Assembly (NCBI GenBank): GCA_038060895.1
Contig: JBBTCT010000030.1
Span: 1 to 33,016 of the forward strand
Length of the DNA: 33,016 nt
Origin: Planctomycetota bacterium
Lineage (GTDB): Bacteria; Planctomycetota; MHYJ01; WSZJ01
Direction: 5' to 3'
Position numbers and translations under genes: made by a program. Below are positions 4,979-29,359 of this stretch, in pieces; within the stretch, counting starts at the first letter, position 1; every line of letters starts with the position of its first letter. The notes beneath the pieces are model-generated. The model worked only from the letters and a program-made list of their open reading frames with translations, did not search any database and had not been told where the DNA came from.

Positions 4979-7900
4979 GTGAAACCCCCTTCAAAGTCCG
5001 TGACGCTAGTTTTCGCCGACCTGGCTGGCGCGCTGGAATTTGAGGCCCGGCACGCGGCGGCGTTTGCGGAGTCGGCGTCGCGCTGGCGAACGCGGGCACA
5101 GGAGCAACTCGGCGAAAGCGGGGGATACCTGGTGAAAGCGATGGCCGCCGGGATCATGGCGGCGTTCGCGGACGCGGGGAAGGCCGCGTTTTTCGTGACG
5201 CAGATTCTTGTCGAGGCCGAACGCTATCCGTGGCCGGGAGGCGCGTCGCCGGTGCGCGTGGGCGTGAACACCGGCGAGCCGATTCTCGAGCATGATGCGG
5301 GGACCGGCCGGGCCGACTATTTCGGTCCCGCCGTGAACCGCGCCGCCCGGCTTTGCGCGGCGGCGCACTCCGGGCAGGCGCTGTTGTCCGCTTCGACTCG
5401 CGAAGCGGCTGGCGCTTCCATTTCGGACGCCGACGTGACGGATCTTGGTGAACACCGGCTGCGCGGTCTCGAAACGCCGGAACGCGTCTTTCAGTTGCTG
5501 CCTTCGGCATGGCGCGGCCGCCATTTCCCTCCGATCGCCGCGGCGGCGAGCCTGCCGACGAATCTGCCGCCGCAATCGACGTCGTTTGTGGGGCGTTCGC
5601 GGGAAGTAGCGGAGCTGGAAGGGCTGATTGCGGGCGGAGTGCGGGTGATTGCGCTTGCGGGGCCGGCGGGGTGCGGCAAGACGCGGCTGGCGGTGAGGCT
5701 GGCGAGCGGGCTCATGGCGAAATTCCCCGGCGGCGCTTGGCTCGCGGATTTGTCGGAGGTGACCGACCTGGCGGGGGTGGCGGACGCCGTGGCCATGGCG
5801 CTCGGCGTGCAGCTTCCGTCGGGGCGGGCGCCGGCGGAGGCCGTGGGCGATCTGCTCGAATTCCGGCCGCCGCTGGTGCTGGTGCTGGACACGTTCGACC
5901 GGGTCAGGAAAGAGACAGCGGCCGCGGTGGCCGCCTGGGCGGCGCGCGCGCCGCGGTCGGTGTTCGTGCTGACGACGCGGGCGACGGCGGGCGTGCCGGG
6001 GGAGCGCGAAGTGCGCGTCGATCCGCTCGGCGCTCCCGGAGAAATCGCGAAGGGCCCCGGGGCGGCGGAGCGGGCGGCTGCTTCGGAGTCCGTGAGGCTG
6101 TTCGTGGATCGGGCGCGGGAAGCGCGGCCGGACTTCCGGTTGACGGACGAGAACGCTTCGGACGTGGCGCGGATCTGCGCGGAGCTGGAGGGGCTTCCGC
6201 TCGCGGTGGAGCTGGCGGCGGCGCGGGTCCGGGTGTTGTCGGCGGCGGAGATGGTGAAAAAGCTGGGGCAGAAGTTCCAGATCTTAAGGAGTGCGCGGCA
6301 GGACACGGCGCGGCGGCAGCAGACGCTGTCGGGGGCGATCGAGTGGAGCTGGGACCAGCTTTCGGAGTGGGAGCGGAGCGCGTTTCTGCAGGCGTCGGCG
6401 TTCGTGGGGGGCTTTCACGAGGAAGCGGCCGTGCAGGTGATCGACCTGTCGGCGCATGCGGGAGCGCCGTCGCCGGGCGCGGCGGTGCGCGCGCTGGTGT
6501 CGCGGAGCCTGGCGACCGTTTCGGAGACGCCGCGCGGGCCGCGGTACTCGATGTACCGGACGATCCGCGAGTACGCGGAGCGGCGGCGCGCGGAATCGGG
6601 AGCGGAGGGGGCGGCGGCGGAGGACCGGCACGCGGCGTGGTGCCTCGAGGAAGGACGTCGGCGCGAGGCGAGGCGGCGGACGCCGGCGGAAGTCGAGTCG
6701 AGGGACCGGATTTTTGCCGAACTGGACAACGTCTTCGCCGCGTGCGACCGGCTGGCCGGCTCGAAGGCGGCCGACGCGCCGGCGCGCGCGCGCCGCGGAT
6801 TCCAGACGCTGCTGACGCTCGAATGGCTTGCGGAGCGGTACTGCCGCAATCCCGGAATCCGCCTCCGGGCCGAGCAGGGCCTGATCCAGCTCGCGTCGCT
6901 CCCTCCCGCGCCCGGCGACGACGCGCTATGCGCGAACCTTCACACGATGGTAGGGGTCTGCCTCTGGACCCTGTCGGAACGCAGCGCGGCGATTCGCCAC
7001 TACGACCTGGCCATCGCCGCGGCGCGCGAATCCGGCGACCCCGGCACCGTGGCCCATGCTCTTTCGGGGAGAATCCAGGCACACTGGTCGGGCGGGCAGT
7101 ACGAGGACGGCCTCCGCCTCGCCGGCGAAGTCGAACGGATCTACCGCGAACTCGGCGATACCGGCGCCCTCGCCATGATCTCCAACACCCGCGCCGCGCT
7201 TCTCCTCTGGCGCGGCGAACTCCGCCCCTCCCTCGCCGCGTTCGAAACCGCCCTCGCCTTCAGCCGCAAGGTTGGCTGGGGTTACGGCACCGCCATGATC
7301 GTGGGGAACATGTCGCTGGCCTACAAGGAGCTGGGCGACCTCGCCACATCGGAAAAACTCTGCCGCGAATCCATGGCCTACGCCGATGCCGAAGACTACC
7401 CGTCGCTCAAGTCGACCTGCCTGGGAAATCTCGGCGGGCTCGTTTCGGACTCGGGACGCTATGACGAAGCCCTTCGGCTGTTCGAGCAGGCCGCGGACAT
7501 CGACCGCAGCCTGGGCGACAAGGCGCTTCTCGCCAGGAAGGACGGCAACAGGGCCGTCGTCCTGCTGCGGCAGAAAAAGTTCGAAGAGGCCCTGAAGATC
7601 TTCCAGGCCTGCGACCGCCATTTCCGCGAGCTCCTGGATCACGCCGCGGTCACCACGAATCTCACGAACACGGCGGCCGTGCTCATTTCGTTGAACCGGC
7701 ACGAGGAAGCGCTGGTCCACCTGGAAACGGCGCGGGTGGAGGAGGCGCGCACGGGGGACCGGCTGGGCCTCGCGCACATCGACCAGTACGTCGGGCGAAT
7801 TCACTTCGAGCGCGGACGGCACGAGCAGGCGGTGGGCCTCCTGCGGTCGGCGGTGCAAACGGGACGCGAACTCGGGACCGGGCAGGCCGCGCGGCACCTC

Positions 7901-8092
7901 GTCGCTGTCTGCATTCTTGCGCTGGCGGAGGAGAAGCTCGGGAGGCAGGCGGAAGCGGTCGCGCTCGTGCGGGAGATCGAACCTGCCATGGAAGCGTATG
8001 GGAAAATAGAAGGGAATTGGGACGAGGCACTGCGCGAATACTGGGACCGGGCAAAGTTGATCCCGGCAAAGACAAAGACGAGTCGCGAATAA
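4979..8092 (+). CDS. Degenerate class III nucleotide cyclase + STAND/NB-ARC-like ATPase + TPR protein (copy 2)
   Basis: VTLVFAD, DYFGPAVNRAAR, Walker A GPAGCGKT, Walker B VLVLDTFD, GLPLAVELAAAR, and TPR repeats (LGNLGGLVSDSGRYDEALRLFEQA). GTG start. Confidence 0.88.
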   Translation: MKPPSKSVTLVFADLAGALEFEARHAAAFAESASRWRTRAQEQLGESGGYLVKAMAAGIMAAFADAGKAAFFVTQILVEAERYPWPGGASPVRVGVNTGEPILEHDAGTGRADYFGPAVNRAARLCAAAHSGQALLSASTREAAGASISDADVTDLGEHRLRGLETPERVFQLLPSAWRGRHFPPIAAAASLPTNLPPQSTSFVGRSREVAELEGLIAGGVRVIALAGPAGCGKTRLAVRLASGLMAKFPGGAWLADLSEVTDLAGVADAVAMALGVQLPSGRAPAEAVGDLLEFRPPLVLVLDTFDRVRKETAAAVAAWAARAPRSVFVLTTRATAGVPGEREVRVDPLGAPGEIAKGPGAAERAAASESVRLFVDRAREARPDFRLTDENASDVARICAELEGLPLAVELAAARVRVLSAAEMVKKLGQKFQILRSARQDTARRQQTLSGAIEWSWDQLSEWERSAFLQASAFVGGFHEEAAVQVIDLSAHAGAPSPGAAVRALVSRSLATVSETPRGPRYSMYRTIREYAERRRAESGAEGAAAEDRHAAWCLEEGRRREARRRTPAEVESRDRIFAELDNVFAACDRLAGSKAADAPARARRGFQTLLTLEWLAERYCRNPGIRLRAEQGLIQLASLPPAPGDDALCANLHTMVGVCLWTLSERSAAIRHYDLAIAAARESGDPGTVAHALSGRIQAHWSGGQYEDGLRLAGEVERIYRELGDTGALAMISNTRAALLLWRGELRPSLAAFETALAFSRKVGWGYGTAMIVGNMSLAYKELGDLATSEKLCRESMAYADAEDYPSLKSTCLGNLGGLVSDSGRYDEALRLFEQAADIDRSLGDKALLARKDGNRAVVLLRQKKFEEALKIFQACDRHFRELLDHAAVTTNLTNTAAVLISLNRHEEALVHLETARVEEARTGDRLGLAHIDQYVGRIHFERGRHEQAVGLLRSAVQTGRELGTGQAARHLVAVCILALAEEKLGRQAEAVALVREIEPAMEAYGKIEGNWDEALREYWDRAKLIPAKTKTSRE

Positions 8093-8167: not shown

Positions 8168-11140
8168 ATGATCCCCGCACCTGACGGCGTCGTCACCCTG
8201 GTGTTCGCCGAAGCGGCGGCCTGGGGCGGCGAAGAGCCTGGCCTGCTCGAAGCCCGTCGCGGGTATGAGGTCAAGCGCGTCGGCGACCGACTGATGGCCG
8301 CGTTCGCTTCGGCGCCCGACGCGGTGCGGTTCGCGCTGGACCTGCTCGAGCGCGGCATCGAAGTCCGCTTCGGCATCCACTCGGGGGAGGCTATCCGCGA
8401 AACCGATCCCGCCACCGGCCGGTCGGACTATTTCGGACCCGCGGTCAATCGCGCCGCGCGCATCCTCGAGGCCGCGAATCCCGGGCAAGCCGTGCTGTCG
8501 CAGCCGGCGCTCGAGGCCGCGGCCGAAGCTCTTCGCGACGCCGCGGTCACCCCGCTCGGCGAGCATCGGCTGAAAGGCCTCGAACGCCCCGAGCCGCTCT
8601 TCCAGTTCCTGCCAACCCGGCTCAGCGGCCGCGCGTTTCCTCCGCTTCGGACCCTGACGGCGCTTCCCACCAACCTCCCGGTCCAGACGACGAGCTTCGT
8701 CGGGCGCGAAAGCGAACTTCACGAGATCGAGCGCCTCTTCGCTTCCGGCGCCCGGCTCGTGACTCTCACAGGCCCCGCAGGCGTCGGCAAGACGAGGATT
8801 GCCGTCCGGCTCGGCGCGGAACTGCTGGGCCGCTTCGCGGGGGGATGCTGGTTCGTGGACCTTGGCGAAGCGGGAATTGCCGGCGAGGGGGGCGCGGCGC
8901 TGGCGGGGCTCCTGGCGCAGGCGATCGGGGTGACGGTCGGCGGCGGATCGGTGGAGCAGGTCGGGCGGATCCTGGCGGCGCGGCGGTCGCTCCTGCTGAT
9001 CCTCGACACGTGGGACGTCGCGCGCCCGGGAGCCTCGGCGGCGCTGGAGTCGTGGCTGGCCCGCGCTCCGGAACTGAAGGTCATCGTCACGGGCCGCTCG
9101 GCGGCGATCGTCCCGGGCGAACGCGTGCTGCGCGTCGAGCCATTCCCCGTGCCGGACGCCATGAGGCTCTTCGTGGAGCGCGCCCGCGAGGCCAAGCCCG
9201 GCTTCTCGATCACCCCGGACTCGGAAGCGGACGTCTCGGCGATCTGTCGCGAGCTGGAGGGCATTCCGCTCGCGATCGAGCTCGCCGCGGCGCGCGTGAA
9301 AATCATGCAGCCCGCTATGATGCGCCGGAAACTCGGCCAGAAGTTCCAGCTCCTCAAGTCCGCGCGGCAGGACGCGACGCACCGGCAGCTCACGCTCAAT
9401 GGCGCCATCGAGTGGGGCCTGGAGACGCTGACCCCCGAGGAACGCCGCGTCTTCCTCAGGCTCAGCGTCTTCCGCGGCGGTTTCCTCGCGGAATACGCCG
9501 CGCAGGTCGTCGGCCCCGAAGCCACTCCCGAGCGCATCGAGGCCCTCCGTGCCCGCAGCCTGCTCGCCGCGCGCGACTATCCGTGGGGGCGGCGCTACCT
9601 CCTCTACCGCCTTATTCACGAGTACGCCGAGCGCGAGTGGCGCTCCGCCTCGACCCCCGACGAACGGCTCGCCCTGGAACGCCGCCACGCCACGGCGGCG
9701 CTGGAGTATTTCAAGGCCTGGGAAGAGAAGCTCCAGACCACGCAGCAGCGCGAGTCGCTGGACCGGCTCGAGGCCGCCATGGAGAACATCGCCGCCGTCC
9801 AGGAACGCGCCCTCGCGCGCGCGGCGGCGACCGCGTCTTCCGACGAGGCGGCCCGCGAGCTCGAAATCGCCGCGCGGGCTGTGGACTGCTTCACCGTGCC
9901 GTTCAGCGCCCGCGGGTCGGCGTCGGACTGGCTGACCCGGTGCGAGCAGGCCCTGAAGGCCGTCCTCGCCGTGCCTGCCATCGCGGAACGGATGGACCCC
10001 GAAATCCACTCCGGGCTGCTGGCGAACGTTTCGGAAGCGGCGCGCGCCGCCGGTGACAACGCCCGCGCGGCGACACTCGCTTCACATGCCGTCACTTCCG
10101 CCGCCCGGCGTCCCGACTCGCTGGGCTATGCCCGTGCGCTCCGCATCCACGCGTGGCACGACGCCCTGGCCGGGAGATTCACCCAGGCCCTCGCTTCCCT
10201 CGATCTGGCCACCCGCATTGTCCGCGTCCTCGGGCTGGACCGCGTCCTCTCGGAAATCGAGAACACGCGCGGGCTGACTCTTCGCCGAAGCGGCGAAACG
10301 CAGGGAGCGCTCGAGGCGTTCCGCGACGCGTACCGGCTTGCCCACGACAACGGCTCCATCGCGCTCGAGCCCGCCTACGCCTCAAACCTGGGCACCACGC
10401 TCGAAATGCTCGGGCAGCTGGACGAAGCGATGGTCTGGTACGAACGCGCGGAGAAGGGCGCGGAGGCGCTCGGCCGTACCAACGCCATAGCCGTCAATCT
10501 CGCCAATCGCGCCAATCTCCTTTCGCTTCGCGGCGACCACGAGGCGGCGCTCGCGACGCTCGCTCGGGCCGAAGCGCACGCCAGGGACCTCGGGCGCCCC
10601 GCCATTATCGCGGCCTGCCACGCCATGCGGTCCGCCGCGCTGGGTCGAGCCGGCCGCGCCGCGGAAGGGGTGGAGTCGAGCCTCGCCGCAGAGAAAATCT
10701 TCCGCGAGATTGGCGACCGAGCTCTCGTCGCTTCGCTGCTCGGCGAGCGTGCCCACCTGTACCGCGCTCTCAAGGATCTCCCGGAGGCCCGGAAGGCGTT
10801 CGAAGAGTCCGCGGGCGCCTTCGAAGCGCTCGGCAACCGCTCCGCGCTGCTCACCGTCGTCACGGGTTTTGCGGCATTCCTCCGCGAGACAGGAGGGCCG
10901 GCGGCTGCAACCCTCCGGCTGGCGCTTCAGAATCGCGCCGGCTGCTCCCCGGTCCAGGTCTTCGAAGCCCTGTCCGAGCTGGCGTTGACGGAAGAAGCGG
11001 CAGGAAAGCCGGCGGAAGCGAAGTCCGCCGCGCAGGAAGCGCTCACGGCGCTGGGTGGGGACGCGAGGTGGGAGTCATCCGTCCGGGCCGGGATGCTTCG
11101 AGATCTGCGCTCACGCATGGAGAAAGTCCTCGCGGGCTGA
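8168..11140 (+). CDS. Degenerate class III nucleotide cyclase + STAND/NB-ARC-like ATPase + TPR protein (copy 3)
   Basis: EVKRVGD, DYFGPAVNRAAR, Walker A GPAGVGKT, Walker B LLILDTWD, GIPLAIELAAAR, and TPR repeats (SNLGTTLEMLGQLDEAMVWYERA). Confidence 0.88.
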   Translation: MIPAPDGVVTLVFAEAAAWGGEEPGLLEARRGYEVKRVGDRLMAAFASAPDAVRFALDLLERGIEVRFGIHSGEAIRETDPATGRSDYFGPAVNRAARILEAANPGQAVLSQPALEAAAEALRDAAVTPLGEHRLKGLERPEPLFQFLPTRLSGRAFPPLRTLTALPTNLPVQTTSFVGRESELHEIERLFASGARLVTLTGPAGVGKTRIAVRLGAELLGRFAGGCWFVDLGEAGIAGEGGAALAGLLAQAIGVTVGGGSVEQVGRILAARRSLLLILDTWDVARPGASAALESWLARAPELKVIVTGRSAAIVPGERVLRVEPFPVPDAMRLFVERAREAKPGFSITPDSEADVSAICRELEGIPLAIELAAARVKIMQPAMMRRKLGQKFQLLKSARQDATHRQLTLNGAIEWGLETLTPEERRVFLRLSVFRGGFLAEYAAQVVGPEATPERIEALRARSLLAARDYPWGRRYLLYRLIHEYAEREWRSASTPDERLALERRHATAALEYFKAWEEKLQTTQQRESLDRLEAAMENIAAVQERALARAAATASSDEAARELEIAARAVDCFTVPFSARGSASDWLTRCEQALKAVLAVPAIAERMDPEIHSGLLANVSEAARAAGDNARAATLASHAVTSAARRPDSLGYARALRIHAWHDALAGRFTQALASLDLATRIVRVLGLDRVLSEIENTRGLTLRRSGETQGALEAFRDAYRLAHDNGSIALEPAYASNLGTTLEMLGQLDEAMVWYERAEKGAEALGRTNAIAVNLANRANLLSLRGDHEAALATLARAEAHARDLGRPAIIAACHAMRSAALGRAGRAAEGVESSLAAEKIFREIGDRALVASLLGERAHLYRALKDLPEARKAFEESAGAFEALGNRSALLTVVTGFAAFLRETGGPAAATLRLALQNRAGCSPVQVFEALSELALTEEAAGKPAEAKSAAQEALTALGGDARWESSVRAGMLRDLRSRMEKVLAG

Positions 11141-11142
11141 GC

Positions 11143-11967
11143 TCAGGCGCCCGCACAGTGCCCCCGCGAAGCCGCGCCCTCCTTCTTGACCTCGCGCAGC
11201 GGCCGTCCGCTTCCGCCATTGCGCGCCGCGACAATTTCGCAGACGACGGAAAGGGCGATTTCCTCGGGCGCCTTGCCGCCCAGGTCCAGGCCTGCCGGGG
11301 CCCGGATGCCGGAGAGCGCTTCTTCCTTGATCCCCATCTCACGGCACACTGCGAACACGGCTTCCCGGCGCCGGACGGACGCGACCATGGAGATCCCGGC
11401 GGCGCCAAGGTCGAGCGCGCGGCGGATCGCGAGGTGGTCGGACTTGTGGTGAGTGGCGACGACAACCCAGGTGCGCGGCGTCGCGGCGAGGCGCTCGTAG
11501 TCGGGGTCGTCGGTGACGACGGATTCGGCAGCCGGATAAAGCGCGCGCGTGCCTTCGGGGTCGTCCACGGTCACGCGGAACCCGGAGCGCGCGCCGAGGT
11601 CGCAAAGCGCTTCGACGAGGCGTCCGTGCCCCAGCACCAGGAGGCGCGCCTTCGGGAGATGCGGCTCGACGAAGACCTCCATCCGGCCGCCGCAGGGAAC
11701 GCCCGTCGCGCCCAGTTCGTCGGACAGCTCCAGCGGGATCATGCGGGTCTTCCCGTCCTTGAGCGCTTCAGCCGCCTCGGAAATGACCTGCGCCTGGACG
11801 CAACCGCCGCCGACGTAGCCGAAGAGGACCTCGCCGGTCTCGGAAAGGATCGCCTTGGCGCCCGCGGGGGCAGAAGCGGAGCCTTCGGAGCGAACGACCG
11901 TGGCCGTGCAAAAAGGTTTGTCGGCGTCGGCGAGGGACTGGGCGAGGGAGTGGAAGTCGTGGGGCAT
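11143..11967 (-). CDS. XdhC/CoxI family molybdenum cofactor insertion accessory protein
   Basis: ATVVRSEGSAS..GAKA, GYVGGGCV, CGGRMEVFVEP, Rossmann-like LLVLGHG, VVVATHHKSD and RAPAGLDLGGKAPEEIALS. True start is ATG 11967; the longer ORF to 12855 overlaps another gene. Confidence 0.9.
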   Translation of the reverse strand: MPHDFHSLAQSLADADKPFCTATVVRSEGSASAPAGAKAILSETGEVLFGYVGGGCVQAQVISEAAEALKDGKTRMIPLELSDELGATGVPCGGRMEVFVEPHLPKARLLVLGHGRLVEALCDLGARSGFRVTVDDPEGTRALYPAAESVVTDDPDYERLAATPRTWVVVATHHKSDHLAIRRALDLGAAGISMVASVRRREAVFAVCREMGIKEEALSGIRAPAGLDLGGKAPEEIALSVVCEIVAARNGGSGRPLREVKKEGAASRGHCAGA

Positions 11968-12039
11968 GGGGGCAGTATATCGCGGGGAGTGAGTCACCGC
12001 GGGAAGCGTACCTTGTGCGAAAAACGGCAACGGCCTTGC

Positions 12040-12066
12040 CGCAGAGGGCGCAGAGATCGCAGAGAA
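12040..12066. repeat. 9-nt tandem repeat (CGCAGAGnn) x3
   Basis: cgcagaggg cgcagagat cgcagagaa, bracketed by two copies of aacggcaac (12023-12031, 12065-12073). Confidence 0.7.
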
Positions 12067-12186
12067 CGGCAACAGCCTGGGCAGGGACATGAGCAGAGCG
12101 CTCAAACCGGGTAGAATGCCCCGCGAACCGGGAATACGAGTAAGGAATACCGGGGTCCGCGCCGATACACAACGGGGGTATTCACG

Positions 12187-12891
12187 GTGCGCGTCGAAAA
12201 CGACGAAATGTACGGCGACTGGGCCCATTGGCTCCAGGCGCCCTGCCCGGTCTGCGCCGCCCCGTTGCGCGCCCACCACCTGCACGACTTCGCCTCCCTC
12301 ATCTGCAAGGGCTGCCGCCAGAACCCGCTTCTCTATTTCTCCGGAATCCCCGCGACGAGGCGACACGGCCCGGCGATGACCAAGCTCCTGATGGAGCATG
12401 GCCTGCTCGTCGAGGTCGCCGCCGACATCGCAGGCGAGCTCAAGGCCGACGCGTCGCTTCCGCAGGTCGTCGAATTCCTGCTTTCCATGCACTACGTGAA
12501 ACCGGAGGTGCTGGAGAAGCTGCTGCGGAAGTGTGCGCCGAAGGGCTGGATCGACGGGATGACGATGACGTACGCGCCGGACTTGCCCGCGGCGACGGGG
12601 CCGCGGGTCCCGCATCACGGCGACCGAATCGACCTGCACGACTGGGAGATCGGCCCGGAGCTGGCGAAGCGGATCCCGCGGACGATTGCGCGGGTGTACC
12701 GGTGTGTGCCGGTCTGGGCGGACGGGACGCACGTCGTGCTGGCTGTGGACAACCCGGAGAAGGTGCGCGTCGCGGATGTCGCGGGGCTCATGGGATGCGA
12801 AGTGGCGCTCGTGAAGGCGCCGAAGGACCAGATTGCCGAGGCGCTGAAGAAGCACTATGGGGCGGCGGGATGGCAGGAGGCGTGGTGGTAG
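12187..12891 (+). CDS. Hypothetical protein: CxxC-x16-CxxC Zn ribbon + MshEN/T2SSE N-terminal-like domain
   Basis: CPVC...CKGC, and a C-terminal IDL..WEIGPELAKRIPRTIARVYRCVPVWADGTHVVLAVDNP that resembles the GspE/PilB N-domain. Start is GTG 12187 or ATG 12208. Confidence 0.65.
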   Translation: MRVENDEMYGDWAHWLQAPCPVCAAPLRAHHLHDFASLICKGCRQNPLLYFSGIPATRRHGPAMTKLLMEHGLLVEVAADIAGELKADASLPQVVEFLLSMHYVKPEVLEKLLRKCAPKGWIDGMTMTYAPDLPAATGPRVPHHGDRIDLHDWEIGPELAKRIPRTIARVYRCVPVWADGTHVVLAVDNPEKVRVADVAGLMGCEVALVKAPKDQIAEALKKHYGAAGWQEAWW

Positions 12892-12898
12892 GAATCGG

Positions 12899-13183
12899 TT
12901 TGGAGTTTCGAGTTCCGGAGGTTGAGTTCCGGGATCCGGGTTCCGAGTTCCGTGTGGGGTTCAGGGTTGAGAGTCTGGAGTTGTTGAGTGAGTTGCTCGC
13001 CAGGAGTTGAGTTTCGGGTTGAGTTTCCGTCCCAAACCTGGACGGGTCACCATCAACTCACCGCACAACCCGAAACGCGAAACTCCGAACCCCACACGGA
13101 GCCCGGAACCCGGATCCCGGAATTCAACTTCCGGAACTCCCAACTCCAAACACCGCCAACAACTCCGAACTCGCAACTCCCAA
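12899..13183. repeat. Long imperfect inverted repeat built from ~7-nt GAGTT(C/G)n units
   Basis: Arms 12899-12968 and 13081-13150 match at 62/70 by manual comparison. Inner stems are 13011-13021/13066-13076 and 13027-13032/13040-13045. Extra AACTC units trail to about 13183. Confidence 0.9.
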
Positions 13184-13203
13184 CCTGCGTTACTATTCCC
13201 CGC

Positions 13204-14364
13204 ATGCGATCCCTCCTTGCCGTTCTCTTCCTCGCAACAACCGCCTCCGCTGACCCCGAAGTGATGGGCCAGATCCTCGACAGCGACGGCAAGGACGGCG
13301 GGGTCATTGAATTCGCGATCCTGAAGCTCAAGAACCCCGAAGACCTCGACGGCACGCCCATTCCCGTCAAGACGGAGCGCTCGGGCCGCTTCTATGTCAA
13401 GCTCGCCCCCGGGGCCTACCGGATCGGCGACATCCGGAAGCCGCTCGAGCGGGACAAGAAGTTGTTCGAAGCGAATTACGCTCGCGACCTGATCGAAGTT
13501 GCCGACGGCGCCGGATTCGACATCGGGATGATCCGGCTGGAGAAAACCGGGACGTACGTGGCGGGGACGGTGAAGCGGGCCGGGAAACCGGTTGCTGGCG
13601 TGGCGGTCGAGGTGTTCGACCCGGGCGCCGGATACGCGACGGGTGTCAAGGCGACGACGGATGCCGCCGGGCGGTACGAGATGCAGATGAACGACGTGAA
13701 GGGCCCGCAGGCGCTGGTCCTCACGGTGGTCGAGAAGGAAGGTCAGGCTTTCGCGCGCGGCGCGGTCGATCTCTGGAAACCCGCGACGGCTGACGTCGAA
13801 CTTCCTGACAAGTATGCGGAAGTCATGATCGACCTGACCGCGCCGGAGGAGTGCTGGGTTTACTTCCACCCGAAGGGCGATCCCGCGCCGTACGTCATGC
13901 ACAAGCTGCGACCCGGCGCCAAGGCCTCCATCCCCGGGTTCGCGCCCGGCGCATGGACCATCACCGCCGTGTGCAGCGGCGCCCAGGCCGACGTCGAGGC
14001 GACCCTCCCGGTCACGGCCCCGATCGCGCTGGCCGTCTCCGCCGGCCCTCGCCACCGCGTCGACGGCAAAGTCGCCGTCACCGGCGCGCCCAAGGACTTC
14101 GACTGGTCGAGAGTCGCCGTCATTGCGAAACCGGCCGCGTCCAATTCCCCCGGCTACCTCTTCGCCCCCGTCTCCCGCAACGGATCCTTCGCCTTCGCCG
14201 GCCTCGCCCCAGGCAAGTACGAGCTCTCCATCGCCACCGGCAAGCGATTCGACGCGATGCGCTGGTTTTCCGTCAGCCGCTCCGCCATCGCCATGGGCGT
14301 CTTCGAGCTCATCGCTCCGCGCACCGTCGACCTCATCGTGCGGGCCGCCGACCTCGTCAAGTAG
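13204..14364 (+). CDS. Secreted protein with carboxypeptidase-regulatory/prealbumin-like beta-sandwich repeats
   Basis: Signal peptide MRSLLAVLFLATTASA-D. Motifs VAGTVKRAGKPVAGVAV..ATTDAAGRY and NGSFAFAGLAPGKYEL. The ORF extension to 12988 runs through the palindrome. Confidence 0.75.
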   Translation: MRSLLAVLFLATTASADPEVMGQILDSDGKDGGVIEFAILKLKNPEDLDGTPIPVKTERSGRFYVKLAPGAYRIGDIRKPLERDKKLFEANYARDLIEVADGAGFDIGMIRLEKTGTYVAGTVKRAGKPVAGVAVEVFDPGAGYATGVKATTDAAGRYEMQMNDVKGPQALVLTVVEKEGQAFARGAVDLWKPATADVELPDKYAEVMIDLTAPEECWVYFHPKGDPAPYVMHKLRPGAKASIPGFAPGAWTITAVCSGAQADVEATLPVTAPIALAVSAGPRHRVDGKVAVTGAPKDFDWSRVAVIAKPAASNSPGYLFAPVSRNGSFAFAGLAPGKYELSIATGKRFDAMRWFSVSRSAIAMGVFELIAPRTVDLIVRAADLVK

Positions 14365-14429
14365 GCTTGCCAGCTTCAGGGGAAGCGGGGACACTTCCAC
14401 GCCTCCGGCCCATTTTTCGGGACTTCCCC

Positions 14430-16103
14430 ATGACGCGCAGGCTGATTCCTTTCGTTCTGGCGGCATTCGCCGCCGGGTGCAGCAACCAGGGACGGCTCAA
14501 GAACTACGAAGTCGGCGAACTCGAGGAAGAACGCGTCCAGAAGGCGGTGAAGGCGATCGCCGCCGGGCTCGAGGCGGGGGATGTCGAGAAGTGCGTCTCC
14601 TCGCTGGTCCCGGACTTCCACCAGTTCTTCGACGAAGGTCGGATGGTCACCATCAGCTCCCCGGACGGCATGACCTTGAGCAAGTGGGAGGCGGGCGGGT
14701 TTCCCACGATGAGCGAAATGGACCGCGCCGGGATGAAGAAGTGGTTCGAAGCCTATCTCGGGACGTGGGTGGTGGTGGAGCGGGCGCTCGCGAAGATCCG
14801 CCGCGTGGATTTCGACGAGGACGACCTCTCGGTCGCCAGGGGCCGTTTCTTTCTCGACGTCTACGGGATCTCTTCCGGCGGCGAAGCGCGCGAAGACCTG
14901 GTCTACCTCGAGCTTCGCTTCAAGAAGGCCGGCGACGCCTGGCAGATTTCGAGGATCGAGCTGGACGAGCCGTTCATGTCGTCGCACTGCGGGAAGGCGC
15001 AGTTCCGGAACGTCTCGCGCGAAGTCAACGGGGTCTGGCCGCACGAGCGGAACCAGAACGCCCGCGGTTACCTGCCGATTCCCGAGCAGACCGCAGACTG
15101 CGGGCTCGCTTGCGGCGATTACGACGGCGACGGCTTCTACGACGTCTACCTGCTGAACGGAAGGAGCAAACGGCTGCTCCGCAACAAGGGAGACGGGACC
15201 TTCGAGGACGTGGCGGAGAAGGCGGGCGTGGCCGAGGCGGCCACTGAAAGCCGCTCGGCGCTTCTCGTGGATCTCGACAACGACGGCGACGACGACCTCT
15301 ACATCGGGAACAACCAGACGCCCAACAAGCTCTTCCGCAACAACGGCGACGGGACGTTCACGGACGTGACCGCGGACAGCGGGGTCGGGTACGTCGGCTT
15401 CAGCACTTCGTGCACCGCCGCCGACTACGACCGCGACGGCGACATCGACATCTACCAGTGCTGCTACGGGAATTTTTACGAGCGGCTGCCGCTTCCCCCC
15501 GCCTTCGACGGCCAGCCCAACCGGCTCTACCGCAACAAGGGAGGGCTGAAGTTCGAGGAAGTCGGCGAGGACGCCGGCGTGAACGACACCGGCTGGACGC
15601 TCGCCGCGACCTGGGGCGACGCGAACAACGACAACTGGCCCGATCTTCTGACGGCCAACGACTTCGGCGTGAAGAGTCTCTACATCAATCAGAAGGACGG
15701 CACGTTCGAGGAGGACGCCGAGGACGCCGGCTGCCTGGACCGGGGATTCGGCATGTCCACTGCCTTCGGAGACATCGACAACGACGGAGACTTCGACATT
15801 TATTTTTCGAACATGTACTCGAACACGAACTGGATTTTCCAGCGCACCGAAATCCTCCCGATGCCGTGGTTCCTCCATTGGCTCCGGACGCAGATCCTGG
15901 GCACCCTCGACTCGATGACCCTGGGCAACACGCTCTGTCTCAACAATGGAGACGGGACGTTTTCCAACATCACGGCGAATTCGGGGGTTGACTACGGCCA
16001 GTGGGCGTGGGGAAGCGAGTTCATCGACTACGACGCGGACGGCGACCTCGACATCTACTGCGCGAACGGATTCATCAGCGGGACCGACGCCGAGGATTTG
16101 TGA
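14430..16103 (+). CDS. Lipoprotein with NTF2-like domain + FG-GAP (CRTAC1-like) repeats; N-terminal part of a probable TGA read-through gene continuing to 17144
   Basis: Lipobox FAAG-C and six Dx[DN]xDGxxD-type repeats (DYDGDGFYD, DLDNDGDDD, DYDRDGDID, DANNDNWPD, DIDNDGDFD, DYDADGDLD). Ends NGFISGTDAEDL-TGA with the frame still open afterwards. Confidence 0.88.
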   Translation: MTRRLIPFVLAAFAAGCSNQGRLKNYEVGELEEERVQKAVKAIAAGLEAGDVEKCVSSLVPDFHQFFDEGRMVTISSPDGMTLSKWEAGGFPTMSEMDRAGMKKWFEAYLGTWVVVERALAKIRRVDFDEDDLSVARGRFFLDVYGISSGGEAREDLVYLELRFKKAGDAWQISRIELDEPFMSSHCGKAQFRNVSREVNGVWPHERNQNARGYLPIPEQTADCGLACGDYDGDGFYDVYLLNGRSKRLLRNKGDGTFEDVAEKAGVAEAATESRSALLVDLDNDGDDDLYIGNNQTPNKLFRNNGDGTFTDVTADSGVGYVGFSTSCTAADYDRDGDIDIYQCCYGNFYERLPLPPAFDGQPNRLYRNKGGLKFEEVGEDAGVNDTGWTLAATWGDANNDNWPDLLTANDFGVKSLYINQKDGTFEEDAEDAGCLDRGFGMSTAFGDIDNDGDFDIYFSNMYSNTNWIFQRTEILPMPWFLHWLRTQILGTLDSMTLGNTLCLNNGDGTFSNITANSGVDYGQWAWGSEFIDYDADGDLDIYCANGFISGTDAEDL

Positions 16104-16109
16104 CCACCT

Positions 16110-16138
16110 TTCTGGAAGAGCGTGGTCACGCACCAGGA
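16110..16138 (+). promoter_or_regulatory. Candidate bacterial SECIS element
   Basis: Lower stem UUCUGG/CCAGGA, upper stem GCGU/ACGC and apical loop GGUC, with the loop starting 20 nt after the in-frame UGA (16101-16103). Confidence 0.55.
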
Positions 16139-17144
16139 CGAGTTCGAAGCGAAGGAACGGAAGTTCAACATGGGCGACAAGTCGCTCAACGGCTACGAGA
16201 TCAAAAAGCTGTGGCGGAATGAGGACGGCCGGCACTTCTCGGACGTCTCCATCGCCAGCGGCGCCGGCGACCTGCACGACGCGCGCGGTTTCACGGCGTG
16301 CGATTTCGACCGCGACGGCGACCTCGACATCATGCTGCGGAACTACCACCAGGACTCGGTCTTCCTCCGGAACGAAGGCGTCAAGAACCACTGGCTGAAG
16401 GTCAAGCCGGTCGGGACCGCTTCGAACCGCGCGGGCATCGGCGCCCGGATCGAGATCGAGATCGGCGGGAAGCGGCAGATCCGGTGGATCACGGCGGGCT
16501 CCGGCTACCTCATGCAGCAGCCCAACGAGGCGTATTTCGGGCTGGGAACTGCGACGCGCGTGGACGGCATCACGGTCATCTGGCCGAACGGCGTCACGCA
16601 GAAATTCGGGCCGGCGGACGCCGACACCTACGTGAAAGTCACCGAGGGGAAGGACGGGACGGTCGTCATCCCGAACGGGAAACAGGCGATCCTCCCGCCG
16701 GTTGACCTGGGGAAGGGCGACCCTCTCTTCGAAGTGCTGGCCGCCTGCGACGTGAAGGACGTTGAGGGGAAGAAAGTCGATCTCGGGCATCTCGAGAAGC
16801 CGACGCTCGTCGTCTTCTGGGCGACGTGGTGCAACGTCTGCCGCGGCGAATTCGGCGCCATCGATGTCCTCGCGAAAACGCAGGCCAAGGCCGGGCTCGA
16901 CGTCGTGAGCATCGCGATTCTGGATCCGCAGGGCCCGGATTTGAAGAAGACCTGCGAGGAGCTGAAGCCCGGATTCAAAGTCTGGACAATGTCCCGCGAG
17001 GATTACGACCGTGTCTTCGGGAAGGACGCCGCGGTGCCGAAGTCGATCCTCATGGAGCGAGGCCGCGTGAGCTGTGTGTTCAACGGGAAGCTTCGGCCGT
17101 ATCTCGTGAAGTCGTACATCATCGAAGCCGTGCGAGCCAAGTGA
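16122..17144 (+). CDS. Final FG-GAP repeat + ASPIC/UnbV domain + TlpA-like thioredoxin domain; probably the C-terminal part of the 14430 gene
   Basis: Same frame as the upstream ORF. Contains DFDRDGDLD, the ASPIC/UnbV-type NHWLKVK..SNRAGIGARI..GSGY..YFGLG..VIWPNG, and VVFWATWCNVC. No signal peptide of its own. Confidence 0.82.
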   Translation: MVTHQDEFEAKERKFNMGDKSLNGYEIKKLWRNEDGRHFSDVSIASGAGDLHDARGFTACDFDRDGDLDIMLRNYHQDSVFLRNEGVKNHWLKVKPVGTASNRAGIGARIEIEIGGKRQIRWITAGSGYLMQQPNEAYFGLGTATRVDGITVIWPNGVTQKFGPADADTYVKVTEGKDGTVVIPNGKQAILPPVDLGKGDPLFEVLAACDVKDVEGKKVDLGHLEKPTLVVFWATWCNVCRGEFGAIDVLAKTQAKAGLDVVSIAILDPQGPDLKKTCEELKPGFKVWTMSREDYDRVFGKDAAVPKSILMERGRVSCVFNGKLRPYLVKSYIIEAVRAK

Positions 17145-17150
17145 GGAGGG

Positions 17151-17250
17151 GGTAGTGGGTAGTTGGTAGGGGGTAGGAAGGGCCATTCCCTGGACGATCG
17201 ATGGTCGTTCCTACCCCCTACCCCCTACCCCCTACCAACTACACACTACC
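17151..17250. repeat. Inverted repeat of 7-nt GGTAGnn units between convergent genes (possible bidirectional terminator)
   Basis: Left arm ggtagtg ggtagtt ggtaggg ggtagga (17151-17179). Right arm ttcctaccc cctaccc cctaccc cctacca actacac actacc (17208-17250). Confidence 0.85.
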
Positions 17251-18958
17251 TTGGCAGTCCCCACGCGCTCTGCAGGTCCTCCTGCGTTCCCCGGCCGCCC
17301 AGAAGATCGGTGATCGCCGCGAGCCGGCCCTTGGCGGGCTCTCCCGCGCCCAGCGCCCGCGCCAGCGCGCCGAAATCCCATTCGACCGCGGAGGAGCCGC
17401 CTTCCCTCCACATCCTGAGCATCTCCTCGATCGCCGCCTGCGCTCCTCTCGCCTCGCCCTTCCGCTCCCACGCCATCGCTCTCAGCGCCTCCAGGACCAG
17501 CGCGTTGTCACGCAGCGAATCGCGGATCAGGCCGTCGTTGGCGGCGAGAATCGCGAGCGCGTCATCCGGACGGTTCGCGGCCACAAGGATCTCCGCCTGC
17601 TCCAGGAGGAGGTTGGCGGATCCTGGAAGCGCCACCACCGCGGCGCGCGCGGCTCCCGCGGCATTCAGGGCCCGGCCTGTCTCGAATTCCGCCGCCGCGA
17701 TCGCCCGGTGCGCTTCCGGCCAGCGGCCGCCCGTCGCAGCGAGTGCGTCTCGCGCGGATTCCCCGGCGTCGTCGAAGCGCTTTTCGCCGAAGGCTTTCTT
17801 CACGTCCGCCATGAACCTCACGGCTTTCTCGACGCCCGTGGGCTCCAGTTCCGCCCACCACGCGTACGCAAGTTCACGGTAGTCGCAGAGGGGAGCCGCC
17901 GCTGCCGCCCGCAGTCCCACACGCGTTTCCGCGTCCAGTTCGCCGTCCTTCAGGTACAGCGCCAGCGCTTCGAGCACCGTCGCGTTCCACTTCATCCGCA
18001 CCGCGTCCTTCCAGGCCCTCCCGTCACGGCTCGCCTTGAGCTTGACGACGAGCGAGGCGTTGATGGCGATGGCGGCGTTCATGCGGGCGAAAAGCTGCAG
18101 GTACTGCTTAGCGGACATCCGGGCGCCTTCACGCCTCTCCGATGGCGCGCCGACTTCCGACCAGATCATGTGAACCGCGAGGTTGTAGTGGGCGAGCGCT
18201 TCCTGCCACGCCTCCGCATCCGTGAGCTTCTCGTCCGCGAGGCGCTTTTCGCGAAGCCGGTCGCGCAGGTCAGTCCAGCCCGCCACGGGGATCTCCCGGT
18301 TGACGAACGGGTCGCCGGGCGCCGGGACCCGGCAGCCCGCGATCACGAGTGCGCGCTCTTTCGGAAGCGTGCGCGCCGCCCAGCCGCCGGAGAGGGCGAG
18401 GTCGGGCAACTCGATGTCCGGCCCCAGCATGTCGGGCTCCAGCTTCTCCATGAACGCCTCGAACCCCGGCAGCATCCGCGCGTGGTCGCCCTTCGCGCAA
18501 ACCAGCATCGCGTGAAACACGAACTTCCGCCCCGGCGTCGCCCCTTCGTTCCACTCCCACATCACGTGCGTCGAGGCTGCGGCTCCGTCCACGGAGACGA
18601 AATCGCCGCGAGCCGCGGAAGCGCCGAATAGGTCGAAGGTGGAGGTCGAGACTTTCGTCCACTTGCCCTCGAGGATGCGGACCAGGACGTCTTCGTCCGG
18701 CCGTACGAAGGTCACGTCCACCACCGTGACCTTGAGCGCGATCTCCCCGCCATCGGCCGACATGGCGACGACGGATTCTTCCGTGGGATGCCGGGTCCAG
18801 CCTTCGGGAACGGCTCCGGAAATGTGAAAGCCCGGGCTCTCCCACGGACCAGCAGGGGCGGGAGGGGGAGTTTCGGGCTCCGGGGGCGGCGGGTCCGGGG
18901 TGGCGCAGCCGGTGATGAGGAGGGAGAAGAGGAGTGCGGCGGCGGGGAAGCGGGGCAT
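17246..18958 (-). CDS. Hypothetical lipoprotein with C-terminal TPR-like repeats
   Basis: Lipobox LITG-C, Pro-rich linker, an alpha/beta N-domain and an Ala-rich helical repeat C-terminus. Confidence 0.75.
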   Translation of the reverse strand: MPRFPAAALLFSLLITGCATPDPPPPEPETPPPAPAGPWESPGFHISGAVPEGWTRHPTEESVVAMSADGGEIALKVTVVDVTFVRPDEDVLVRILEGKWTKVSTSTFDLFGASAARGDFVSVDGAAASTHVMWEWNEGATPGRKFVFHAMLVCAKGDHARMLPGFEAFMEKLEPDMLGPDIELPDLALSGGWAARTLPKERALVIAGCRVPAPGDPFVNREIPVAGWTDLRDRLREKRLADEKLTDAEAWQEALAHYNLAVHMIWSEVGAPSERREGARMSAKQYLQLFARMNAAIAINASLVVKLKASRDGRAWKDAVRMKWNATVLEALALYLKDGELDAETRVGLRAAAAAPLCDYRELAYAWWAELEPTGVEKAVRFMADVKKAFGEKRFDDAGESARDALAATGGRWPEAHRAIAAAEFETGRALNAAGAARAAVVALPGSANLLLEQAEILVAANRPDDALAILAANDGLIRDSLRDNALVLEALRAMAWERKGEARGAQAAIEEMLRMWREGGSSAVEWDFGALARALGAGEPAKGRLAAITDLLGGRGTQEDLQSAWGLPR

Positions 18959-29118: not shown

Positions 29119-29193
29119 TACCCCCAATGGGATTTGAACCCATGTCGCGGACGTGAAAAGCCCGTGTCCTAGACCAGGCTAGACGATGGGGGC
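29119..29193 (-). tRNA. tRNA-Glu(TTC)
   Basis: Reverse complement GCCCCCATCGTCTAGCCTGGTCTAGGACACGGGC-TTTTCAC-GTCCGCGACATGGGTTCAAATCCCATTGGGGGTA folds as a cloverleaf. CCA is not encoded. Confidence 0.95.
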
Positions 29194-29286: not shown

Positions 29287-29359
29287 TGAGGGCGCTGGGG
29301 ATCGAACCCAGGACCCACAGCTTAAAAGGCTGTTGCTCTACCAGCTGAGCTACGCCCTC
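29287..29359 (-). tRNA. tRNA-Lys(TTT)
   Basis: Reverse complement GAGGGCGTAGCTCAGCTGGTAGAGCAACAGC-CTTTTAA-GCTGTGGGTCCTGGGTTCGATCCCCAGCGCCCTCA folds as a cloverleaf. CCA is not encoded. Confidence 0.96.

Follow-up and report, generated by a model that had tools for sequence, protein, structure and literature searches.

A gene in a 33,016-nt stretch of DNA from a Planctomycetota bacterium (assembly GCA_038060895.1, contig JBBTCT010000030.1, positions 1 to 33,016 of the forward strand), hereafter called the window, was examined for the meaning of an in-frame TGA. The sequence at 14430-17144 on the plus strand is predicted to be one genuine selenoprotein gene, with the UGA at codon 558 read as selenocysteine (Sec, U), a reading to which we give a probability of about 0.88. 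An earlier note, made from the sequence of the window by itself, had proposed a single 904-aa Sec lipoprotein at this locus. That proposal is supported by the conservation of the TGA, the Sec machinery of the genome, a selenocysteine insertion sequence (SECIS)-like element, the existence of Cys forms and the domain layout, and every check of it that could be run came out as a selenoprotein predicts. The recoding mechanism is the standard one; the protein family is new. The features of the gene are listed here, with the evidence for each in brackets (AF2, AlphaFold2).

14430..17144, plus strand: predicted selenoprotein gene, 904 aa, terminal TGA at 17142-17144 (translation, Pfam, alignment, AF2)
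14430..14480, plus strand: putative signal peptide with a lipobox-like A-A-G-C, Cys17 (N-terminal sequence, orthologues)
14502..14999, plus strand: N-terminal alpha+beta domain, about residues 25-190, kept in paralogues (AF2, alignment)
15093..16379, plus strand: FG-GAP seven-bladed propeller, residues ~222-650, with Ca-type motifs (Pfam, AF2, Foldseek)
16101..16103, plus strand: UGA codon 558, predicted to be read as Sec (translation, relatives, AF2, independent contigs)
16110..16138, plus strand: SECIS-like hairpin (folding, SECIS model, related hairpins in all subfamilies)
16434..16634, plus strand: UnbV/ASPIC domain, residues 669-735 (Pfam, 65.4 bits against a cut-off of 23.4)
16749..17129, plus strand: TlpA/ResA-like thioredoxin-fold domain, residues ~774-900, with WCNVC at 16827-16841 (Pfam, structure matches)

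As listed for the window, the open reading frames (ORFs) 13851..16103 and 16122..17144 occupy one plus-strand frame. Translation of 14430-17144 with TGA as U produced a single 904-aa chain with an internal TGA at codon 558 only, the second TGA being the terminal stop, which bears out the earlier description of two ORFs in one frame split by one codon. The UGA lies in the protein context GTDAEDL-U-PPFWKSVVTHQ (DNA gat ttg TGA cca cct ttc tgg, 16095-16115). The domain order given in the earlier note was recovered by Pfam and by motif reading: six DxDxDG motifs, starting at residues 230, 281, 332, 397, 448 and 533, precede the TGA, and the seventh, at residue 625, follows it together with the ASPIC/UnbV domain and the WCNVC thioredoxin domain. 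FG-GAP_3 was matched in six stretches (154.7 bits in total), and an AhpC-TSA/Redoxin match was obtained at residues 774-850 (AhpC-TSA 32.2 bits, cut-off 26). The export signal was likewise found where it had been placed, in the first part only; the N-terminus, MTRRLIPFVLAAFAAGC, contains a lipobox-like A-G-C that reads L-A-G-C or L-S-A-C in the orthologues, and the second part has no such signal. Residues ~25-190 matched no Pfam family at E<=1, and alignment of the N-terminal alpha+beta domain to the paralogues begins at query residue ~25-45.

Related genomes (n = 41) were searched with read-through of stops, and matches were obtained in 30 of them; among the strong read-through matches listed, nearly all have exactly one TGA. 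The window's own genome contains seven Sec copies. The site was located with a profile of a 146-aa region in which every stop was masked, the identity of the codon thus not being presupposed. Among 68 distinct family sequences (fetched loci with a long profile match), 64 have TGA in the Sec column and none has TAA or TAG, matching the earlier expectation of a TGA that is conserved and never replaced by another stop. One of the four others is a motif-bearing member with Glu, and three are distant, motif-less sequences with Val, Glu or Thr. The 64 TGA forms are spread over 15 genomes (nine of the genus and order, six elsewhere in the class), span down to ~25-30% identity and share the motif D-[LYWFT]-U-x-x-[FYL]-[WN] at the site. 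Hidden Markov model (HMM) matches shorter than 100 aa (110 aa in one count) and sequences identical over 120 nt of DNA were set aside in the site counts; G002:C276 and 112 further read-through matches lie outside the fetched set, L093 (G007:C170) gave no long match, and L166, identical to L089, is not independent.

The coding alignment with relatives runs on past the TGA to residue 904. The terminal stops of eight orthologues are TGA (four), TAG (three) and TAA (one), and because they vary in this way TGA is taken to be an ordinary stop in the lineage. The internal TGA was spanned without differences by contigs of two independent public runs (X3 record 23, 16054-16700; X4 record 26, 15765-16228), so that the codon appears genuine and not a sequencing error, as the earlier reading required. 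The one metatranscriptome run searched (X11) gave short contigs of relatives only, none of them across the TGA.

The conserved TGA, the varied terminal stops and the identical independent contigs therefore effectively exclude an error, a pseudogene or a plain split into two genes. A nonsense mutation, pseudogene or assembly error, to which the bare presence of a stop and nothing more would point, is scarcely credible, since the TGA is kept in 15 genomes and in deep paralogues, the sequence downstream of it is conserved, and no difference is seen there in the contigs of two other studies. The locus might instead comprise two genes, the first for a propeller lipoprotein of 557 aa and the second, with the GTG at 16122 as its start, for an ASPIC/thioredoxin protein of 340 aa. 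Gene callers annotate it so, and in public databases the N-terminal parts of the orthologues are stored as separate 'hypothetical' or 'VCBS repeat-containing' proteins of 549-558 aa that stop at the TGA, which is the splitting by annotation pipelines that the earlier note had foreseen. Such a division is nevertheless very improbable: the reading frame is unbroken in each of the 64 Sec-form sequences, neither TAA nor TAG ever stands in for the TGA, relatives without Sec form one chain in which the site has a sense codon, the seventh blade is encoded 3' of the TGA, and the second part would lack an export signal although TlpA-like domains work outside the cytoplasm.

The earlier note had made its reading depend on Sec machinery in the genome, and this was found. 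The genome has a tRNA-Sec (71.7 bits, exceeding the Rfam threshold; anticodon tca by ARAGORN) and encodes SelA, SelB and SelD. Its selD gene (G000:C2:48628-49548, L052; 364 bits) has one in-frame TGA, and the SelD of this genome is itself probably Sec-containing. Each of the 15 genomes that carry TGA forms has SelA, but this co-occurrence is a weak test because nearly all of the relatives (37 of 41) have SelA anyway.

The GGUC-loop hairpin described in the earlier note is present 3' of the UGA exactly as stated. It covers 16110-16138, with a lower stem UUCUGG/CCAGGA, an upper stem GCGU/ACGC, the loop GGUC (16124-16127) and a UGA-to-loop distance of 20 nt, and is the fold obtained for nt +9..+48 (-9.2 kcal/mol). 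Since the fold of the single sequence is within chance (z = -1.15), weight was placed on comparative data. All subfamilies have a hairpin starting from ~10-13 nt 3' of the UGA with G-G/U in the apical loop. The published bacterial SECIS model specifies a loop of 3-9 nt, a stem no shorter than 4 bp, G in the loop's first two positions, a spacing of 16-37 nt and a minimum free energy (MFE) of -7.5 kcal/mol or below (PMC13188914). When these constraints were applied, 61 of the 64 Sec forms passed, and among the controls 72 of 320 codon-shuffled sequences and 106 of 400 terminal TGAs taken from long ORFs in the same genome did so; the spacing was 16-21 nt in 58 of the 61. The element thus resembles bacterial SECIS elements in lying soon after the UGA and in having a small loop that begins with G and then G/U and an energy <= -7.5 kcal/mol, but, unlike a generic SECIS, it is family-specific in sequence and also codes for F-W-[KR]-x-V-V.

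Covariation of the hairpin, another check raised by the earlier note, was observed as well, the position being conserved and the changes compensatory. In the U-T-x-[FY]-W-R-Q-V subfamily (n = 38), pairing holds in 98.5% of the cells of a 7-bp stem, and two pairs have both sides changed (17 cells); the covariation score of 0.187, against 0.117 in shuffled alignments, was reached by 0 of 500 shuffles. Pair 18-26 of this subfamily is A-U in 18 members, G-C in 16, G-U in 3 and mismatched in 1, with A-C in 0, and it couples an Arg codon (CGA/CGG), through its synonymous third base, to the second base of a GUC Val/GCC Ala codon three codons on, a natural case of RNA structure shaping protein sequence. 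In the window's subfamily, GCGU-GGUC-ACGC is swapped in some members for GUGUG-GUU[GC]-CACAC. Analogous hairpins are present in the Sec forms of Acidobacteriota and Verrucomicrobiota, and none was found in three Cys forms. An Rfam scan of the window returned two tRNAs only, which has no bearing on the hairpin.

A separate 8-bp perfect pairing, GUGACCAC/GUGGUCAC, was observed at 16099-16131 and takes in the UGA (-16.1 kcal/mol). Orthologues that have UGACCACC retain this pairing, and it is weaker in those that have UGACCCCC; it may extend the lower stem of the SECIS or be due to chance.

Members of the family without Sec were collected by an HMMER search of 1.84 billion representatives, a word-based search and a search of named genome contigs. 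The best 150 representative matches were mostly giant multi-FG-GAP proteins, of which ~25 spanning the whole profile were informative, and the genome contigs were drawn with the generic pattern D[FIV]D[RG]DG[DR][LMP]D, so that they form a sample rather than a census and carry no taxonomic frequencies. Among the 23 motif-bearing members without TGA, the residue at the site is Cys in seven (P0233, P0238, P0242, P0030, L119, L100 and L150), Ser in five, Ala in three, Glu in three, Asn in two, and Asp, Leu and Gln in one each. The existence of seven Cys forms establishes Sec/Cys exchange at the site, an example being DLCSFFWRQVV beside DLUSFFWRQVV. TGA forms with both hairpin and CxxC were also found in Acidobacteriota (L094) and Verrucomicrobiota (L096, L099). 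In a quick tree, the Sec forms are scattered over several clades among Cys, Ser, Glu, Gln, Asn and Ala forms, with Sec and non-Sec forms mixed within one subfamily; its starred branches each force one change, and from a tree of this kind we infer neither the number nor the direction of Sec gains and losses. The Cys form P0238 (1059 aa) was observed to end in ~150 low-complexity residues rich in Arg, Ser and Cys that resemble a frameshifted read-out of a thioredoxin/TPR region.

The AF2 model, built from a 21-sequence alignment, contains one propeller (predicted local distance difference test score, pLDDT, 86.2; predicted template modeling score, pTM, 0.88), and because it makes one fold across the TGA the downstream part would belong to the same protein. 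A predicted helix at 558-565, which lies between blades 6 and 7, begins with Sec, and the N-terminal domain is modeled as a helix with a long curved sheet (pLDDT ~90). The protein resembles CRTAC1 in having FG-GAP_3 repeats and UnbV_ASPIC in one chain (Pfam), and murine CRTAC1 (9etn_A) was the best Foldseek match (E 5.1e-29; template modeling score 0.72 on the target). The phmmer alignment with CRTAC1 9etn (E 2.4e-18) covers query residues 252-349 and 620-723 only, with the Sec column outside. Vertebrate CRTAC1 has an EGF-like domain at its C-terminus. The window protein differs from CRTAC1 in its additional N-terminal alpha+beta domain and C-terminal thioredoxin domain.

The C-terminal domain is like TlpA, ResA and CcmG in its W-C-x-x-C motif and matches the solved TlpA/ResA chains 1jfu and 4nmu. 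W797, C801, C804 and P870 are nearly invariant (alignment A2), and P870 would be the cis-Pro of the thioredoxin fold. Scores for the NCBIfam equivalogs were far below cut-off (35.6 against 230 bits for TlpA; 29.2 against 170 for ResA), which by sequence makes the domain a relative of TlpA/ResA and not an orthologue. Unlike the free TlpA/ResA proteins, it is here one domain inside a 904-aa chain. Extracytoplasmic thioredoxin-fold proteins that use Sec are included in a published catalogue (PMC13188914). One such model, NF041054, matches the thioredoxin domain weakly (19 bits, cut-off 300), but those proteins have Sec within the active-site motif, whereas the motif here is the all-Cys WCNVC and Sec lies ~240 residues upstream in the propeller.

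The genomes of this Planctomycetota genus have three to nine Sec paralogues each, often in tandem, most of them with extra C-terminal TPR repeats. The order of their domains is N-terminal alpha+beta, propeller, UnbV_ASPIC and a redoxin domain with CxxC, usually followed by the TPR repeats, which gave weak CcmH/CycH-TPR matches; one clade stops after UnbV_ASPIC. Tandem head-to-tail arrays of four to five Sec paralogues were seen at G000:C36:36989-51674 (L033-L036), G002:C253:28159-44993 and G006:C204:12585-28469, the paralogues in them having the order propeller-ASPIC-thioredoxin-TPR and lengths of ~1050-1150 aa. Another ASPIC-type ORF, G000:C24:148196-148639 (L038/L039), has a stop inside the aligned stretch and has counterparts in G002:C5, G005:C226, G004:C163 and G003:C51. 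The stops across the genomes are TGA, TGA, TAG, TAA and none, and the internal stop of this ORF type is probably no Sec codon.

CxxC is kept in 52 of the 54 Sec forms with enough downstream sequence, six fetched Sec-form pieces being too short to judge. Among members with neither Sec nor Cys at the site, ten have a recognizable motif, which is CxxC in four and SxxC, CxxS or SxxS in six, and in two further members no thioredoxin motif was found; the Cys forms that have a thioredoxin domain carry CxxC in two of three cases. These co-retention counts, which ignore phylogeny, are therefore as expected if the CxxC domain recycles an oxidized Sec.

Several observations weigh against a selenoprotein gene or against a general role for its Sec. 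The earlier note had expected Cys or TGA in homologues; the expectation held for the TGA (64 of 68) and for the seven Cys forms, but not for the 16 of 23 non-Sec members that have Ser, Ala, Asn, Glu, Asp, Gln or Leu in place of Cys, and a range of residues this wide is unusual for an indispensable catalytic residue. Remoter FG-GAP/ASPIC proteins have Leu or Met in the Sec column. Judged by its residues, the site is not a redox residue in every member. The AF2 model is least secure where it matters, with pLDDT of only 58-67 around Sec (residues 551-590). As to the hairpin, the unconstrained MFE fold of the 53-nt piece 16098-16150 is another hairpin, which pairs the UGA (-16.1 kcal/mol), and it is no better than shuffles, 23 of 200 equaling it. 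The SECIS model is permissive in a GC-rich genome, where 22-27% of controls pass. Pair 18-26 has a Fisher p of 8.7e-8, but the covariation counts ignore shared ancestry. The Glu form L040 retains the hairpin, and conservation of the hairpin may be due in part to the conserved peptide F-W-R-Q-V-V. Finally, the Sec forms L088 (G004:C7) and L025 (G036:C141) have a thioredoxin-like region but no CxxC, and L020, L048, L049 and L058 end before any thioredoxin domain; because of these two degenerate forms and the four without the domain, a Sec-CxxC relay is not universal.

The variety at the site bears also on the possibility that UGA-558 is a stop subject to regulated or leaky read-through with a standard amino acid (Trp, Cys or Arg, inserted by a near-cognate tRNA), or that it gives a dual output depending on selenium, with a 557-aa truncated product under selenium scarcity and the full-length protein under other conditions. 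Programmed read-through would suit the exclusive conservation of TGA equally well, and since Ser, Ala, Asn and Glu are tolerated in many relatives, Sec is perhaps not needed. The genome has the complete Sec machinery, however, the hairpins present G-G/U in the apical loop at a SelB-type distance, Sec/Cys pairs exist, and a six-blade fragment of a seven-blade propeller would, from the model, be unlikely to fold. Together these points make read-through without Sec improbable, if less so than two genes, and we prefer Sec insertion at UGA-558.

If Sec is inserted, UGA-558 would be recoded by SelB and tRNA-Sec, directed by the SECIS hairpin in the coding region ~10 nt downstream. The product would be a lipoprotein with a CRTAC1-like seven-bladed propeller, a UnbV/ASPIC domain and a TlpA-like CxxC domain, and an extracytoplasmic location is suggested by the lipobox or signal-anchor N-termini together with the TlpA-type domain. 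Sec, which heads a short helix inserted between blades 6 and 7, could then act as a redox nucleophile that forms a selenenyl-sulfide, to be resolved by the fused CxxC domain, which in turn would be re-reduced through a CcdA/DsbD-type membrane protein. A DsbD_TM gene is present elsewhere in the genome (C14), unlinked to the locus. We put this redox cycle forward tentatively, as somewhat short of an even chance; an alternative is that Sec binds a metal. Slightly more speculative again is the suggestion that the family constitutes an unrecognized class of extracytoplasmic selenoenzyme, in which a CRTAC1-type propeller carries a catalytic Sec recycled by the fused CxxC domain and the TPRs recruit substrate. 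If this were true, the family, with up to nine Sec genes in a genome, may be the dominant part of the selenoproteome in these groundwater Planctomycetota, and redox chemistry would offer the first biochemical handle on the functionally obscure CRTAC1/ASPIC-UnbV family, for which it is in any case a testable hypothesis.

NCBIfam release 20 has no model for a propeller selenoprotein family. A catalogue of May 2026 lists 119 prokaryotic selenoprotein families and subfamilies, mostly thioredoxin-like (PMC13188914, Table 1); no FG-GAP, UnbV_ASPIC or CRTAC1-type entry was found in that table, although supplements of the primary selenoproteome surveys might include the family among their candidates. 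The terms FG-GAP, VCBS, propeller, UnbV, Planctomyc and CRTAC were absent from the main texts of PMC13188914, PMC12013277 and PMC9312934. A literature search of full texts, supplements being outside its scope, for selenoprotein or selenocysteine with FG-GAP, ASPIC, VCBS, propeller or Planctomycetes returned nothing relevant. PMC4807772, on Planctomycetes on Porphyra, names fdhA and fmdB. Very probably, then, this is a large multi-copy bacterial selenoprotein family missing from the current catalogue, abundant in one genus (three to nine copies per genome) and present in at least three phyla. Because annotation cuts every copy in two, the selenoproteome size and selenium dependence of groundwater and aquifer Planctomycetota would be underestimated. 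The placement of Sec is unusual, in an extracytoplasmic beta-propeller beside a dedicated CxxC domain, and the family of hairpins provides a useful test case for predictors of bacterial SECIS elements and selenoproteins.

The genes on either side of 14430-17144 are syntenic in the genus. The upstream gene (12988-14364, plus strand) has CarboxypepD_reg repeats, and the convergent downstream gene (17246-18958, minus strand; 570 aa) has no family match; neither accounts for the selenoprotein function. A plus-strand ORF at 17201-18631 was considered and is probably spurious, its conservation being below that of the minus frame. Further upstream, 4979-8092 and 8168-11140 (both plus strand) are adjacent large genes that each encode an adenylate/guanylate-cyclase catalytic domain and TPR repeats (MalT-like region), and the C-terminal half of the 570-aa ORF at 11143-12855 (minus strand) contains XdhC_CoxI and XdhC Rossmann domains, its first 300 residues having no domain assignment. 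Two tRNA genes lie on the minus strand at 29119-29193 and 29287-29359 (Rfam tRNA, 56.8 and 73.6 bits).

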